DNA of 64,000 bases from Vicinamibacteria bacterium. Its GTDB lineage: Bacteria; Acidobacteriota; Vicinamibacteria; Marinacidobacterales; Marinacidobacteraceae. The notes beneath the pieces were generated by a model. The model was not told where the DNA came from. It did no database searches and saw only the letters and a list, made by a program, of their open reading frames with translations. Positions 10,321-15,391 of this stretch are shown here, in pieces; positions within the stretch are counted from its first letter, which is position 1; each line of letters begins with the position of its first letter. A program made the translations under genes and the position numbers. The stretch lies in NCBI GenBank assembly GCA_963555995.3, contig OY821641.1:2016001-2080000 (forward strand), in the 5' to 3' direction.

Positions 10321-11037
10321 TCAGCCGAACAGACCGGGCGGAGAGCCGCCTCCCGGTCCCGGGTCCTCGCCTCCGGCCAGCGGCTCCACGCAGCGCGGGT
10401 CGTCGTTCGCCGGACTGTTCACGAGGGGACTGACCCGGAAGCCGGTCATCGCCTCCGGCGGATAGGGACCGAGCGGCACTTCCCCGCCGCCGAGCCAGTC
10501 GCCGAACGCCGCCGGGGGCACGATGACCGGCATCCGGTCGTGGATTCTGCCCACCACGCGGTTCGCCTCGGTGGTCAGGATGGTGAAAGTCTCAAGATGT
10601 TCGGAACCCGCGGCATCGAGGAACCCCGGCGGCGGCCGCCATCGCTCGAAGAGCCCCGCGAGCGCGAACGGTCCCCCTTCGCGCATGCGGAAGAGCCACG
10701 GCTGCCGGCGCCGCCCCAGACGCTCCCACTCGAAGAAACCGTCCACCGGGATGAGACACCGCCGGGCGCGGAACGCGTCGCGGAACGACGGCCGGACGCC
10801 GGCCGTCTCGGCGCGGGCGTTGATGAGGCGGTTCCCGATGGACGGGTCCGGGGCGCCGTTCGGGATCAGGCCCCAGCGGAGCATCCGCAGCTGGCGGACG
10901 TCTTCGTTCCGCACCACCGCCGCGAGTTGGGTCGGCGCGATGTTGTAGCGGGGCGGCAGGTCTTCCGGGATCTCCTCGAGGTCGAAGAGTTCGGCAGCCT
11001 CTTCCGAGGAACAGGACTGGATGAAGCGGCCGCACAT
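10321..11037 (-). CDS. SOS response-associated peptidase (SRAP, YedK/HMCES family)
   Basis: N-terminal MCGRF, RYNIAPTQ, INARAET, GFFEW, IHDRMPVI. Confidence 0.93.
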   Translation of the reverse strand: MCGRFIQSCSSEEAAELFDLEEIPEDLPPRYNIAPTQLAAVVRNEDVRQLRMLRWGLIPNGAPDPSIGNRLINARAETAGVRPSFRDAFRARRCLIPVDGFFEWERLGRRRQPWLFRMREGGPFALAGLFERWRPPPGFLDAAGSEHLETFTILTTEANRVVGRIHDRMPVIVPPAAFGDWLGGGEVPLGPYPPEAMTGFRVSPLVNSPANDDPRCVEPLAGGEDPGPGGGSPPGLFG

Positions 11038-11159
11038 GGGTCAGGTCAGGCGGGCTGGACTACCGAATCTGCGCGTCGCGAGAGCGGGTGGCATTACGAC
11101 GTGCGCGGCGCGGAGCGCCGCGCGTGCCGGCCTGGAGACCGGCGTTCCTATAGGTTTCA

Positions 11160-11340
11160 CAGCGCCCATACGGGCGATTTTTTACTGCTTCGCGCAGTGG
11201 CCAATCCGCCGGGAGCACCTTGGCGTTCCCAGTGCCAGTCAGCACCTTGCTTGGACTTGTGCCCCGACGGATGGCCGGGATGGAGGCCCCGTCAGAGAGT
11301 CAGCGCCACCGAGTGCCCAGTATAGGAGACGGCAACGTCG
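11160..11340 (+). ncRNA. predicted bridge RNA of the IS110 element
   Basis: Two internal-loop stems carry guides that match the target (GGCGTTC 11222-11228; GCTTGGA 11249-11255) and the circle junction (AGAGAGTC 11294-11301; TATAGGA 11321-11327); exact RNA ends inferred. Confidence 0.85.
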
Positions 11341-11391
11341 CGGCAGGCCAGCGAAGCCCCAGCAGAGCACGACGCTCGAAGGAACACGACG

Positions 11392-12654
11392 ATGAGTCAT
11401 CTCGTCTCCTGGTTCGCCGGCATCGATCTCGGTGATCGTAGGCATCACGTTCACCTGACCGACGCGGCCGGCGTGGATCTTGGTGAGGCCTCTTTCTCCC
11501 ACGGGGGGAGAGGCATCGCCCAACTTCTTTCCTGGCTCCTGGACAAGACCGGGGCGGATCCCGGTTCGATCGGGGTGGCGCTCGAGGTTCCCCACGGCGC
11601 GGTGGTGGACGGGTTGCTGGACCGTGGCTTCGCGACCTTCGCGGTCAACCCGAAGCAGGCGGACCGCGCGCGCGAGCTGCTGACCCTGTCGGGGGCGAAG
11701 GACGATCCGCGGGACGCCGAGGGTCTGGCGCTGGCGCTGCGCGTGGTCCCCCGGATCTTCCGGCACCTGCAGCCGAAGCACCCGGTGCTGGTGCTGCTCC
11801 GGGACCGCGCGCGGCTGCGCGCGGACCTGGTGAAGCAGCGGACCCGGCTGAGCCAAAAGATCCGGGCGCAACTGCTGCGCTACTTCCCGGCGATGTGGGC
11901 GCTGGCGGGAAGCCTGTCGGGGCTCTGGGGCGGCTTGTTCCTCACCCTGTGGGAGCGGGCCCCGACCCCGGAGCGGGCGCGGCGGCTGCACCGCGGCACG
12001 GTGGCGAAGGTGTTGGCGCGGTGCAAGATCCGCAAGCGCACCGCGGAGGAGGTGGTGGGTGTGCTGCGCCAGCCAGCCCCGGTGGTCGCCCCGGGAGTGA
12101 CCGATGGGGCGGTGGAGACCATCGGGATGCTGGTGGCCCAGTTGCGGCTGGTGCACGAACAGGTGAAGGCGTTGGACCGGGGGATCGCCGCGTTGCTCCA
12201 GCAACTGCCGGCGGCGCTCGGAGAAGCTGATGAAGAAGCAGACGGCGGGGACTCGCTGACCCGGCTGCTGTCGATGAAGGGCGCCGGGCCGGTGGTTGCC
12301 GCGGGCCTGTTCGGAGAGGCGGGCGATCTCTTGGTGGAAGGCAGCCTCGGGCAGACCCGCGCCTATCTCGGCGCCGCGCCGGTCACCAGGAAGTCCGGGG
12401 GGAAAGAGACGCATCACAAACGGCGGGCGGTGAACCGCCACGGGCAGAACGCGCTCTACCACTTCGCGATGGCCGCCATCGCCGCCGATCCCGGCTTCCA
12501 GCGACAAAAGGAGATCCTCAAGGCCCGTGGGCACAACCACGCCCGCATCCTCAGAACCCTGGGGGACCGGCTCCTGAGGATCTTCTTCGCCATGCAGCGC
12601 GACAAGACCCTCTACGACCCGGAGCGCACCCTCCAGAAGGCGGCCGCCGCGTGA
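11392..12654 (+). CDS. IS110-family recombinase/transposase (DEDD RuvC-like plus Tnp serine domain)
   Basis: AGIDLG, ALEVPHG, KDDPRDA (DEDD); C-terminal GAAPVTRKSGG serine motif; 420 aa, uninterrupted. Confidence 0.95.
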   Translation: MSHLVSWFAGIDLGDRRHHVHLTDAAGVDLGEASFSHGGRGIAQLLSWLLDKTGADPGSIGVALEVPHGAVVDGLLDRGFATFAVNPKQADRARELLTLSGAKDDPRDAEGLALALRVVPRIFRHLQPKHPVLVLLRDRARLRADLVKQRTRLSQKIRAQLLRYFPAMWALAGSLSGLWGGLFLTLWERAPTPERARRLHRGTVAKVLARCKIRKRTAEEVVGVLRQPAPVVAPGVTDGAVETIGMLVAQLRLVHEQVKALDRGIAALLQQLPAALGEADEEADGGDSLTRLLSMKGAGPVVAAGLFGEAGDLLVEGSLGQTRAYLGAAPVTRKSGGKETHHKRRAVNRHGQNALYHFAMAAIAADPGFQRQKEILKARGHNHARILRTLGDRLLRIFFAMQRDKTLYDPERTLQKAAAA

Positions 12655-13324
12655 CCTCCGCGGTGGACCTCATCCGGGGGACGACACCGAGCACCCGCGC
12701 GGGCGCCGGTCGAGCTGCCGGATGGCGCTGCCCTCCCGAAGGGGAGCGCCAACGCCACCCGGAGAAGGCGGACGGACGAGAGGGACACTGCACCTGGCCG
12801 GATCACTGCTCCCGGCCATCACAACCCCTCGCACAGTCCTTGCGGTCCGCCAGCGCACCCGAAGGGCCGGAGCGAAGCGGAGGAGGCGCGGAGCGCCTTG
12901 CCGCTGTGCGGATCGCAAGGACTACGCTGCCGGGTGATGGCCTCGGTCCGGCTCGCCCCGGCCCGAACCTCCCGCCTCCCCGGCTCGTAGACAAACACCT
13001 GTGGGAGGTGGGGGAAGCGGTTGCACCAGCCGGCTCCCCTCATCGCGACTGTGCCACCGCACCCCGCTTCCCCCGCCTCCCACAGCTCCACTTTCTTCCC
13101 AATCTCAACCCTTGCAAAAAGGTAGAGAGTCCAAGCCGTACGGGCATCCGGGTTCAGGGCGTTGCGCCCTTCCGCGGCGCGGAGCGTCGCGCGTGCCGGT
13201 CTGGGGACCGGCGGTCCAAGCCGTGCGGGACATCCGGGTTCAGGGCGAAACGCCCTTCCGCGGCGCGGAGCGCCGCGGGTGCCGGTCTGGAGACCGGCGT
13301 TCCAGGCCGGCTTGCCATCCGGAA

Positions 13325-15391
13325 TCAGGGGTTTTCGCCGTCGGTAGTGGTGCGCTTCTCGTTGCCCGCCTCGCCGGGGGCCGGCTCCCACTCGTATTCG
13401 ATTCCGCGGACATGGCGCTCGAACCAATCGAGCTCGACGTTGACCTTGAAGAGCTGGTGGCGGAGTTCCCGGAGGCCGTGCGGCTCCCGGGGCGCGATGT
13501 AGAGGTGGGTGTCCACGCCGTTCGTCCGGAGCGCCCGGTAGAGCTCGACGGACTGGGGCGCGGGCACGCGCACGTCGTTCTCGCCGACGATCACGATGGT
13601 GGGCGTCGTGACCCGGTAGATGTCCTTCAGCGGGGAGTTCCCCCAATAGACGTCGATCGGGGCGTCCTCCTGCCACGGCGTCCCGCCGAACCAGGGCGTT
13701 CGCGGGAACCGGACGTCGCTCTGCCCGTACATCGAGATCCAGTTCACCGCCCCGGCCCCCGAGGACGCCGCCTTGAAGCGGCCGGTGTGGGTGATGATCT
13801 TGTTGGTCATGTGGCCGCCCGCGCTCCAACCCATCTTGGCCATCCGGTCGCCATCGGCGATTCCCCGCTCGATCAGGGTGTCCACGCCCGCCATCACGTC
13901 GAGGTGGGCCTGGTGGAAGTAGTGGCCGACCATGTCCCGGAGGAACTCATCGCCGTAGCCGGTGCTGCCCCGGTAGTTGGGCTTGAACACCGCGTAGCCC
14001 CGGGCCGCCAGCACCTGGACGTAGTTGCTCCAGCGGCCGAAGGAGAACTTGTCGGAGGACTGCGGCCCCCCGTGGGTCTGCACCACCAGCGGGTATCGCT
14101 GTCCCTCCTGGTAGTCGAGGGGATAGAAGAGCAGGCCCTCGACCTCGACGCCGTCCTCGCCGTTCCAGCGGACGGCTTCCTGGACCGGCAGCGCGAAGGT
14201 CTCGTCGAGGTAGTCGAAGACGCTCGTGACCTTGACCGGATCGCCGCCAGCCGCCGGCAGCAGGTGGAGGTCGCCGTTGTTCTCGCGGTTGCTGATGCCG
14301 AAGACGTGCCATCCGGCCGCGGAGGCGAAGTTCCACCCGACGACGGTGTGGTCACCGGCCGTGAGCGGGGCGGGCTCGGGGTCATCCAAGGCCCCGTGGA
14401 AGATCTGGCTGCGGACGCCGGTGTTGCCGATGAAGTAGATCGAACCGTCCGGAGCCCAGGTCGCTCCGTTCGCCTCGTGGGGCCAGTCCTCCCAGAGCAA
14501 GCGATGCGGCCCGCCGGCGGCGGGCACGAGGAACGCGTTCCGGTTGTGGTACGTCTCGAACTCGGCGTTGGCCCCCGAAACGAAAAGGACCTGGGAACCG
14601 TCCGGGGAGAGTTGCGCACCGCTCTCCACCACCGTGTTGTCGGTCAACTGGAGGGCGTTCCCGCCGTCCGCGTCCATGATCCAGACCTCGCCCTCGTCGC
14701 GGTTGTCGAGGAGCGGGGTCGGGGCCCGGGAGTGGGCGATGCGCGCCCCGTCGTGCGAGAGCCGGAACTCCAGGATCGAGAAGTCCCCCCGGGTGATCCG
14801 TTCGGCGTCCCGCGGCCCCGCGCCGGCCGTCGCCACCCGGAAGAGGTGGCGCTGCTTGTAGTCCTCGTCGAAGGCGAAGAAGTCGTCCCGGAGATCGTCT
14901 TTCCGCTTCTCCTCCGCCGTCTTCGGATCGGGCGCGAGGAAGTAGATGTGTTCGCCGTCCGGGGAGAATGCGAACGACTGCACCGAGCTCTCGTGCTGCG
15001 TCAGTGCAGTCGCCTCCCCGCCCCGGTTCGACAGCCGATAAATCTGCTGGAAAGGACCCTGACCCCGGCGCGCCAGGAACGCCACCCAGTCACCGTCCGG
15101 TGACCAGCGCGGGCTGGACTCTCCATTTTCGCCGCCCGTCAGCCGGATGTCGCCGCTGCCATCCGTCCCGATCCGGTGGATGTGCGTCGTGCGGCCATTC
15201 TTCTCCCAGTCGGTGTCCGACCGGGTGTAGAGCAACTCGGTTCCGTCCGGGGAAAGGCGCGGACTGCCGATCTGCGGGACATCAATGAGTTCCACGATCG
15301 TCATCGGCCGCTTTTCCTGCGCCGACGCGGCGACAGCCAGCGCCAGCAGGGCGCCGGCCGCCACGGAATGGGTAATCACGGAATGGCGCAT
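13325..15391 (-). CDS. S9 family peptidase (beta-propeller plus alpha/beta hydrolase), copy 1
   Basis: Signal peptide MRHSVITH; SPDG repeats; HGGP, PNYRGS, GWSAGG, GENDVRV, EPHG. Confidence 0.92.
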   Translation of the reverse strand: MRHSVITHSVAAGALLALAVAASAQEKRPMTIVELIDVPQIGSPRLSPDGTELLYTRSDTDWEKNGRTTHIHRIGTDGSGDIRLTGGENGESSPRWSPDGDWVAFLARRGQGPFQQIYRLSNRGGEATALTQHESSVQSFAFSPDGEHIYFLAPDPKTAEEKRKDDLRDDFFAFDEDYKQRHLFRVATAGAGPRDAERITRGDFSILEFRLSHDGARIAHSRAPTPLLDNRDEGEVWIMDADGGNALQLTDNTVVESGAQLSPDGSQVLFVSGANAEFETYHNRNAFLVPAAGGPHRLLWEDWPHEANGATWAPDGSIYFIGNTGVRSQIFHGALDDPEPAPLTAGDHTVVGWNFASAAGWHVFGISNRENNGDLHLLPAAGGDPVKVTSVFDYLDETFALPVQEAVRWNGEDGVEVEGLLFYPLDYQEGQRYPLVVQTHGGPQSSDKFSFGRWSNYVQVLAARGYAVFKPNYRGSTGYGDEFLRDMVGHYFHQAHLDVMAGVDTLIERGIADGDRMAKMGWSAGGHMTNKIITHTGRFKAASSGAGAVNWISMYGQSDVRFPRTPWFGGTPWQEDAPIDVYWGNSPLKDIYRVTTPTIVIVGENDVRVPAPQSVELYRALRTNGVDTHLYIAPREPHGLRELRHQLFKVNVELDWFERHVRGIEYEWEPAPGEAGNEKRTTTDGENP

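Follow-up and report, generated by a model that had tools for sequence, protein, structure and literature searches.

Does the left end of an insertion element that splits a host repeat encode the RNA that guides its recombinase to this site, and which core dinucleotide would such an RNA address? The question is raised by a stretch of 64,000 nucleotides from the genome of a Vicinamibacteria bacterium (contig OY821641.1, positions 2,016,001 to 2,080,000 of the forward strand, hereafter referred to as the window). Here, an element of the IS110 group occupies positions 11149-13132 on the plus strand, i. e. 1984 bp when one copy of the shared bases, the right core, is counted. According to the reading preferred here, to which we assign a probability of roughly 0.8, this is an intact IS110-group element residing in a repeat of the repetitive extragenic palindromic (REP) type, whose left-end RNA is predicted to pair with the REP target via one loop and with the joined ends of the element via the other. 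The mechanism, the name of the protein family and the protein clade (listed in a 2024 tree table) are already known, while what goes beyond the ordinary is a predicted core other than CT.

An IS110-group element within a host REP repeat

The boundaries of the element were derived by comparing its junctions with uninterrupted REP copies, and the same ends are found in the two closest relatives, L014 and L015 (87% and 82% identity). Both flanks are halves of one host repeat that is split at GGCGTT-CC-AAGC. The left half (11100-11146, +) corresponds to genomic REP copies and closes with GGCGTT (11141-11146), the left target (LT) that is matched by the left target guide (LTG) of the RNA described below; the right half (13133-13160, +) begins with the right target (RT) AAGC at 13133-13136. 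The left junction reads GGCGTTCC|TATAGG (11141-11154) and the right junction AGAGAGTCC|AAGCCG (13124-13137), embedded in GGAGACCGGCGTTCC|TATAGGTTTCAC (11134-11160) and AAAAAGGTAGAGAGTCC|AAGCCGTACGG (13116-13143), respectively, with the trinucleotide TCC common to both. Genomic REP copies match the window at 11100-11148/11150 with 92-98% identity. With up to two mismatches, the motif GGAGACCGGCGTTCC occurs 19 times in the window versus 0.77 expected occurrences. In the 3.8-Mb genome, CCGGCGTTCC is found 642 times, followed directly by AAGC in 287 of these cases, and the exact 12-mer target GGCGTTCCAAGC is present in 311 copies. Since the uninterrupted target thus exists in hundreds of genomic copies, the insert can be assigned to 11149-13132.

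At least two REP subfamilies, GCCGGTCTGGAGACCGGCG and GCCGGCTGAAGCCGGCG, end in GGCGTTCC (window 6380-55406). Both contain the 12-nt target of the element, and many of their copies lie in tandem or convergent arrays.

The sole long open reading frame (ORF) between the ends (11392-12654, +) encodes a recombinase of 420 aa with the DEDD residues D12, E65, D105 and D108 as well as the serine S335. This protein is matched by PF01548 (5.7e-28), PF02371 (2.2e-13) and the NCBI equivalog NF033542, "IS110 family RNA-guided transposase" (166.3 bits, cut-off 140). A single-sequence search of the PDB with the 420-aa protein gave no match at E 1e-3. A profile built from nine relatives reached IS621 (8wt6, 2.9e-21) and ISCro4 (9t56, 2.7e-20), and in the profile alignment to these two enzymes the motifs GID, E, KxDxxDA and SG line up. 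D12, E65, D105, D108 and S335 are invariant across the nine-sequence alignment; the reading frame is uninterrupted, and no catalytic residue is lost. The original prediction of an intact IS110-group recombinase is therefore borne out by the DEDD residues and the serine, both Pfam domains, NF033542 and the profile match to IS621. Its view that the mechanism class is known also holds, as this class is published for IS621 and NF033542 already names the family an RNA-guided transposase. Proteins with the clade motif GAKDD[RP]RDA were likewise already present in the 2024 tree table.

Four predicted guides in the left end

Upstream of the recombinase gene, a predicted bridge RNA scaffold at 11194-11359 (+) consists of a target-binding loop (TBL) followed by a donor-binding loop (DBL). 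The TBL (11199-11276, +) is closed by a stem of 11199-11217 with 11260-11276 and encloses the LTG, a small GTGC/GCAC hairpin (11232-35/11242-45) and the right target guide (RTG). The DBL (11277-11341, +) comprises an outer stem (11277-11282/11336-11341, with one G.G mismatch), an inner stem CCGTC/GACGG (11289-93/11328-32) and a hairpin (11303-06/11313-16), and carries the left donor guide (LDG) and the right donor guide (RDG).

All four guides lie on the plus strand. The LTG GGCGUUCC (11222-11229; as DNA GGCGTTCC) has the same sense as LT plus core and would pair with the bottom strand. The RTG (11249-11256) is composed of GCUU, a core-pairing GG and the handshake nucleotides AC; it is the reverse complement of GTCCAAGC at the right junction, with GCTTGGA at 11249-11255. 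In the second loop, the LDG AGAGAGUC (11294-11301; as DNA AGAGAGTC) is sense to the element's right end and extends over the first core base, and the RDG (11321-11329), consisting of UAUA, a core-pairing GG and the handshake nucleotides AG, is antisense to TT/CC/TATA at the left junction, with TATAGGA at 11321-11327. Hence, GGCGUUCC and GCUUGGAC in the first loop match the target, and AGAGAGUC and UAUAGGAG in the second match the donor ends. The matches span 8, 7-8, 8 and 7-8 nt, are free of mismatches, and have the right order and polarity. All strings named in the original prediction were found at the positions it had given, and its two central proposals, that the left end encodes a bispecific bridge RNA and that this RNA targets the host REP repeat, agree with LTG and RTG matching a repeat that offers 311 exact 12-mers and with LDG and RDG matching the joined ends, as far as sequence can tell.

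The weight of these matches was gauged with first-order Markov simulations of the 237-nt left-end interior, in which neither order nor loop placement was demanded. Match lengths of 8, 7, 8 and 7 nt were reached singly in 357, 405, 141 and 53 of 5000 simulations; two or more matches coincided in 65 of 5000, and all four in none of 5000.

The host genome holds one complete copy and one partial copy that lacks the left end, so that relatives were needed for comparison. A protein search of 61 related genomes gave matches in 10, the own genome included, and a pattern scan with one genome per species added 80 loci, kept out of roughly 1100 stretches of the clade. These 80 loci show about 40-45% identity and stem from Alphaproteobacteria, Rhodothermales, Bryobacterales, Acidobacteriota and others. 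L014 and L015 sit at the same REP position and have the same four guides; the loop sequence of their small TBL hairpin differs. In family A, from the same genus (43% identity), the TBL carries ACCGGAGG and ACGCCGGAC, and the matching target, CCGGAGG-TC-GGCGT, lies elsewhere within a REP of the same kind. The TBL of families B and C contains GAGCCCC and CGGUGGAC for the target GAGCCC-CC-ACCG, and that of a Bradyrhizobium-type family (six copies) UUGCCCAC and CGUAGG for TTGCCCAC-CC-TACG, a predicted empty site that accounts for 40 of 61 pattern hits in that genome.

For a wider comparison of guides with flanks, ends were located via the donor guides, which yielded 75 left and 78 right ends from 95 matches of the covariance model described below and, among them, 66 (LTG) and 68 (RTG) distinct guide-flank pairs. 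A common substring of at least 8 nt with the own flank was found for the LTG in 16/66 pairs versus 37/4148 cross-family pairs, and for the RTG in 49/68 versus 343/4390, whereby the C-run targets of many families weaken the LTG signal and inflate the controls. Across the families compared, the predicted guide loops change with insertion sites and element ends. The covariation of guides with insertion sites in homologues, put forward in the original prediction as a check, is thus seen in family A, families B and C, the Bradyrhizobium-type family and the flank statistics. Its caveat that the palindrome CCTATAGG obscures the strand of the RDG is settled by relatives with the non-palindromic left end CCTGTAC, in which the RNA reads GUACAGG and is antisense.

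Two peculiarities of insertion sites were encountered along the way. Seven copies of one alphaproteobacterial family (L104, L106-L109, L111 and L112) have a common right flank, CC-TCACCC, that matches their RTG, and left flanks that differ except for the final C-run, which is reminiscent of the "half-match" insertions named in the title of a 2026 preprint. In genomes G013 and G004, rare REP variants CCGGAGGTC[C/T]GGCGTTCC (e. g. G013:C4:223408-223425) occur beside the majority form CCGGAGGTCGGCGTTCC. They contain one extra base exactly at the crossover of family A and could be excision footprints or alternative targets.

Conceivably, the left-end structure is only an mRNA leader or a protein-binding site, with the protein alone picking the REP and the guide matches arising as by-products of repeats. 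In formal terms, the RDG match is indeed an inverted and the LDG match a direct repeat of the element's termini. However, LTG and RTG match host DNA outside the element and vary between families with the site of insertion on a constant scaffold; moreover, experiments on IS621 established the same architecture and guide polarity (PMC11208160), and the protein is homologous to IS621 and ISCro4. A mere leader or binding site is hence hardly credible, and a guide function of the left-end RNA is the reading pursued below.

Comparative structure of the left-end RNA

A covariance model from homologous left ends, as suggested in the original prediction, was built from an alignment of 15 left ends. RNAalifold alone missed the DBL stems; the structure of this model (R1) combines the RNAalifold result with the outer DBL stem, which was set by eye and then tested, and omits the inner DBL stem because its register varies across families. 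R1 yielded 95 matches in the 98 sources searched, each directly 5′ of a recombinase ORF. In the whole own genome it has a single match, which is the left end studied here (139.8 bits, E 1.1e-30).

Among 63 distinct rows, 95.1% of the pairing cells can pair; the corresponding share was 81.9% for shuffles and 32-51% for controls in which the partner columns had been shifted by 1-3 positions. Changes on both sides occur in 23 of 26 pairs, including all six pairs of DBL helix 5, where they are compensatory. None of 500 shuffles reached the observed values, a count that overstates the structure, as the rows were aligned by fitting them to R1 and stem from related sequences. Without a conserved RNA fold, the shifted controls and the variety of pair types, for instance UA, CG and GC at one pair, would be difficult to account for. 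The covariance, the position 5′ of the gene and the guide loops that track insertion sites together argue for a bridge RNA of the IS621 kind, and the left-end RNA is accordingly predicted to be one.

A further hairpin, the 5′ stem-loop CGCCC-ATAC-GGGCG (11163-11176, +), precedes the scaffold and is also present in L014 and L015. In this copy only, it is followed by the T-run TTTTTT (11178-11183) and thus appears terminator-like; L014 and L015 are devoid of the T-run.

A predicted core other than CT

The predicted core is not CT in either of the two possible registers. Since TCC is common to both junctions, the window alone is compatible with TC, as originally proposed, or with CC. The relatives make CC the probable core, with its left copy at 11147-11148 and its right copy at 13131-13132 (both +); the originally proposed TC would lie at 11146-11147 and 13130-13131. 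In the CC register, the left donor (LD) AGAGAGT occupies 13124-13130 (+), with GT at its positions 6-7.

Throughout the alignment, the RTG is arranged as an RT-pairing segment, GG and two handshake nucleotides, and the RDG correspondingly as a segment pairing with the right donor (RD), GG and two handshake nucleotides. In either loop, 62 of 63 distinct RNAs carry GG in the columns that pair with the core. At the DNA level, the junction cores are CC in 59/60 distinct left and 45/46 distinct right junctions, and the bases that precede the right core (LD positions 6-7) are GT in 46/46 distinct right junctions. Family A, which was left out of the core count owing to its short RD match, has TC as its left and CC as its right core. 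Its target is the majority REP CCGGAGG-TC-GGCGT, so that the first core base is not the same in target and donor, a kind of difference that IS621 tolerates (PMC11208158). In the empty site of the Bradyrhizobium-type family, C and not T precedes CC.

The handshake nucleotides, an arrangement described for IS621 (PMC11208158), point in the same direction. According to a table copied by hand from the alignment read-out, target position 7 is complementary to the DBL handshake nucleotide in 26 of 28 families, among them five of the seven with a base other than C at this position; this holds in the CC register only. Examples are A with T in the window, C with G in family A, A with T in L083, and U with A in L077 and L059. 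The TBL handshake A pairs with donor T7 in 24/24 cases. With CC as the core, the preceding T would become position 7 and thus a handshake base, whose partner would be the A present in both loops. The "7-nt right guides" of the original prediction are therefore correct in length and differ in composition, as a CC core resolves them into 4 nt of RT or RD pairing, 2 core nucleotides and 1 handshake nucleotide.

Alternatively, the same bridge RNA system could use a TC core, with CAAGC and CTATA as 5-nt RT and RD. The LDG ends after TC, which is the only dinucleotide under all four guides, and the published handshake rule (PMC11208158) would be kept better, because the TBL "CU" pairs with the donor AG and not with the target GT and the DBL "GA" does not pair with the cognate donor. 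In addition, if identical cores are required, the junctions of one relative, L056, have exactly TC in common. Yet, the homologous register would place T in the donor opposite C in the target at the first core base in most families, the Bradyrhizobium-type empty site TTGCCCAC-CC-TACG carries C before CC, the covariation at target position 7 (26/28 families) holds in the CC register alone, and GG is the invariant core-pairing dinucleotide. TC is thus an unlikely core, and it is the GG columns, the CC junctions of the relatives, the empty sites and the handshake covariation that favor CC instead.

Beyond this copy, the balance tips slightly towards a phylum-spanning clade (Acidobacteriota, Alphaproteobacteria, Rhodothermales, Bryobacterales and others) in which the predicted core is always CC, donor positions 6-7 are always GT, and both right guides contain an invariant GG. 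In a full-text search, which covered running text rather than figures and preprint supplements, no paper with a "TC core" or "CC core" for bridge RNAs was found. The accessible parts of the IS622 preprint, the ISPpu10 preprint and the Durrant supplements mention only CT or engineered AT, GT and TT cores. A non-CT core may already stand in figures or preprint supplements.

A putative promoter at the joined ends and the proposed cycle

The ends of the element also suggest how the RNA might be expressed. A –35-like hexamer, TTGCAA, is located at 13112-13117 (+) in the right end, and a –10-like hexamer, TAGGTT, at 11151-11156 (+) in the left end. Among the relatives, 30 of 39 distinct left ends have TAnnnT at positions 3-8, and 23 of 41 distinct right ends have a TTGACA-like hexamer (at least 5/6 identical) 14-16 nt before the core end. 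At the predicted junction of right and left end, the two window hexamers, both weak, would be separated by a 17-nt spacer, and a sigma-70 scan of the integrated element returned 0 sites. The sequences thus suggest a split –35/–10 promoter that is conserved over the joined ends and would be active only in the circle.

If it behaves like IS621, the element would leave its site as a circle, in which the joined ends would build the promoter from –35 TTGCAA, the 17-nt spacer and –10 TAGGTT. Transcription would start near 11163, at the 5′ stem-loop, mirroring the junction promoters of IS621 and ISPpu10. The RNA from about 11163 onwards would then load recombinase dimers on each loop. After cleavage 3′ of the core, the top strands would change partners, and the bottom strands would serve to resolve the resulting Holliday junction.

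Counterevidence and activity of this copy

Several observations weigh against the reading of this element as an intact, RNA-guided one. Concerning the RNA itself, single-sequence folding is unremarkable compared to shuffles (z –0.60 for 11150-11391, +0.15 for 11194-11359) and predicts a minimum-free-energy fold that departs from the one obtained by alignment. Folding of 11150-11390, as envisaged in the original prediction, hence fails to single out the structure (z –0.60), whereas the comparative alignment recovers the TBL stem 11199-11217/11260-11276. Among the families of Rfam 15 (E up to 1, 10900-13400), no bridge RNA family matched, and the outer DBL stem contains the G.G mismatch in this element and in its two closest relatives. 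Two further points concern the CC register: the LDG covers the first core base only, and T7 is present in both target and donor with A as the handshake nucleotide of both loops, so that cognate pairing is possible before exchange. Such pairing blocked IS621 recombination in vitro (PMC11208158) and could here mean low activity or favor the TC register. With regard to mobility, the assembly contains one complete copy only, despite 311 perfect targets. In Logan contigs of the runs X1-X3 and X23, which cannot show rare forms, neither the circle joint (13132>11149) nor the empty-site joint (11148>13133) was listed, and the joints that were lie in REP copies. The sole RNA-library contig from a relative about 94% identical over 11139-11754 may be DNA carry-over and is a weak hint at best.

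The sub-threshold Rfam matches, namely miRNA-like hairpins in the right-end module and Rubella_3 in the REP, were dismissed as chance. One contig of an RNA library (run X23) tracks the window up to 11292 and then switches to a donor-binding loop as in families B and C (GGAAAGTTGGCGCC...CAGTAT), which implies that a relative with a similar target loop and a different donor loop exists.

The partial second copy (G000:C1:2407945-2409516, outside the window) is 100% identical over 1189 bp and lacks the left end and the bridge RNA. The sequence around it looks scrambled, in that fragments of the element and of a neighboring gene recur as short duplications, and the copy could be an assembly error or a rearranged relic. 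Without the left end and with scrambled sequence, this match (C1:2408203-2409516) was of no use as a comparison for the RNA.

These findings raise the possibility that the element is built as described above and is resting or weakly active, no longer moving in its host. One complete and one scrambled partial copy against 311 exact targets would fit such a state, as would the terminator-like hairpin and T-run directly after the predicted transcription start in this copy only, the possible cognate handshake pairing at position 7 and the G.G mismatch in the DBL stem. The open ORF, the intact catalytic residues and the four guides that match their DNA without mismatch speak against it, however, and so does the contig depth. 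In Logan contigs of X1-X3 (three runs of one study) over 11124-13136, the interior reaches a depth of 349-712 versus 60-119 for unique flanks, i. e. 5.4-6.2x, although contig depth is a rough measure and the three runs are not independent. Compared to the copy in the window, the interior contigs deviate at the same five positions (11549, 11856, 12514, 12645 and 12982). Depth and variant together hint at more copies, or more strains with the element, in the population than in the assembly. A resting copy is improbable, and an intact element with a predicted bridge RNA remains the preferred reading.

The right end harbors an extra non-coding module of about 420 bp (12655-13075, +), which lies between the recombinase stop and the last ~55 bp and contains long hairpins at ~12838-12920 and ~12998-13086. 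Owing to this module, the right end measures 478 bp in the window compared to about 50 bp in L014, the closest relative, which lacks it; L015 possesses it. About 100 nt of the module (12806-12902) are 80-81% similar to a module in the left end, not the right, of the family A copies L024 and L025. By its distribution it looks like a movable passenger module, and it is not needed for the bridge RNA reading.

Implications and comparison with known systems

Taken together, the element provides a clean natural example, from a phylum that has received little study, of what appears to be self-insertion into a host repeat under RNA guidance, and all four guides and the handshake nucleotides can be read from its sequence. 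In the characterized systems IS621, IS622 and ISPpu10 the core is CT with an almost invariant T, whereas it is predicted to be CC (or TC) in this element and about 60 distinct relatives. If this is true, such enzymes would read the core differently from IS621 with its T as second core base, sites containing CC would be opened to bridge editing, and nature would have supplied a test of core recognition. Provided that an ortholog of the clade is active, it would widen the range of addressable sites and serve as a comparison for the structural basis of core reading.

The closest characterized relatives are IS621 from E. coli and IS622/ISCro4, IS110-group bridge recombinases with a bridge RNA (Durrant 2024, PMC11208160; Hiraizumi 2024, PMC11208158). 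Like IS621, the element combines DEDD residues with the serine of the recombinase and carries the RNA in its left end, upstream of the gene. The RNA comprises a 5′ stem-loop, a TBL with the LTG 5′ and the RTG 3′, and a DBL with the LDG 5′ and the RDG 3′, with the same guide polarity (PMC11208160). Handshake nucleotides 3′ of RTG and RDG and insertion into REP are further common traits, and a split promoter across the joined ends may be another. On the other hand, the protein is larger (420 aa versus the 328-aa IS621 chain) and reaches IS621 by profile only, and its core is CC (or TC) instead of CT. The second core base is thus C, while in IS621 it is an almost invariant T that is read by the main chain of G63 (PMC11208158). 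LD positions 6-7 are fixed as GT in this clade, and the right end of the element bears the additional module of ~420 bp. With 478 bp, this right end also departs from the layout of a long left and a short right end, which is typical of, though not essential to, the IS110 group.

The IS1111 group with its seekRNA belongs to the IS110 family as well and relies on the same kind of RNA-guided pairing with donor and target. Its RNA is encoded in a long right end, and its members possess subterminal inverted repeats of 7-17 bp (PMC11208160). Here, in contrast, the RNA model matches the left end only, and the right end of L014 spans merely ~50 bp. On reading the element ends, for which no dedicated search was made, no long subterminal inverted repeat was noticed.

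Insertion into REP sequences is shared with two elements from Pseudomonas putida. ISPpu10, for which excision and integration were shown experimentally (10.64898/2026.03.19.712850), likewise belongs to the IS110 elements with a bridge RNA; its insertions lie in REP stem-loops, mostly intergenic ones, and its junction promoter spans the core. The preprint on it also describes a "dual-match", in which the REP stem-loop itself is read. It differs by its CT core, a dinucleotide that the junctions here do not offer. A CT core with near-invariant T, the trait of the IS621-like subgroup of IS621, IS622 and ISPpu10, would here be replaced by CC or TC. ISPpu9 is a REP-targeting IS110 element as well, and some of its copies carry a downstream Ssr9 small RNA module (PMC12288879). 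By description, this arrangement resembles the extra non-coding module that follows the transposase gene at 12655-13075 of the window.

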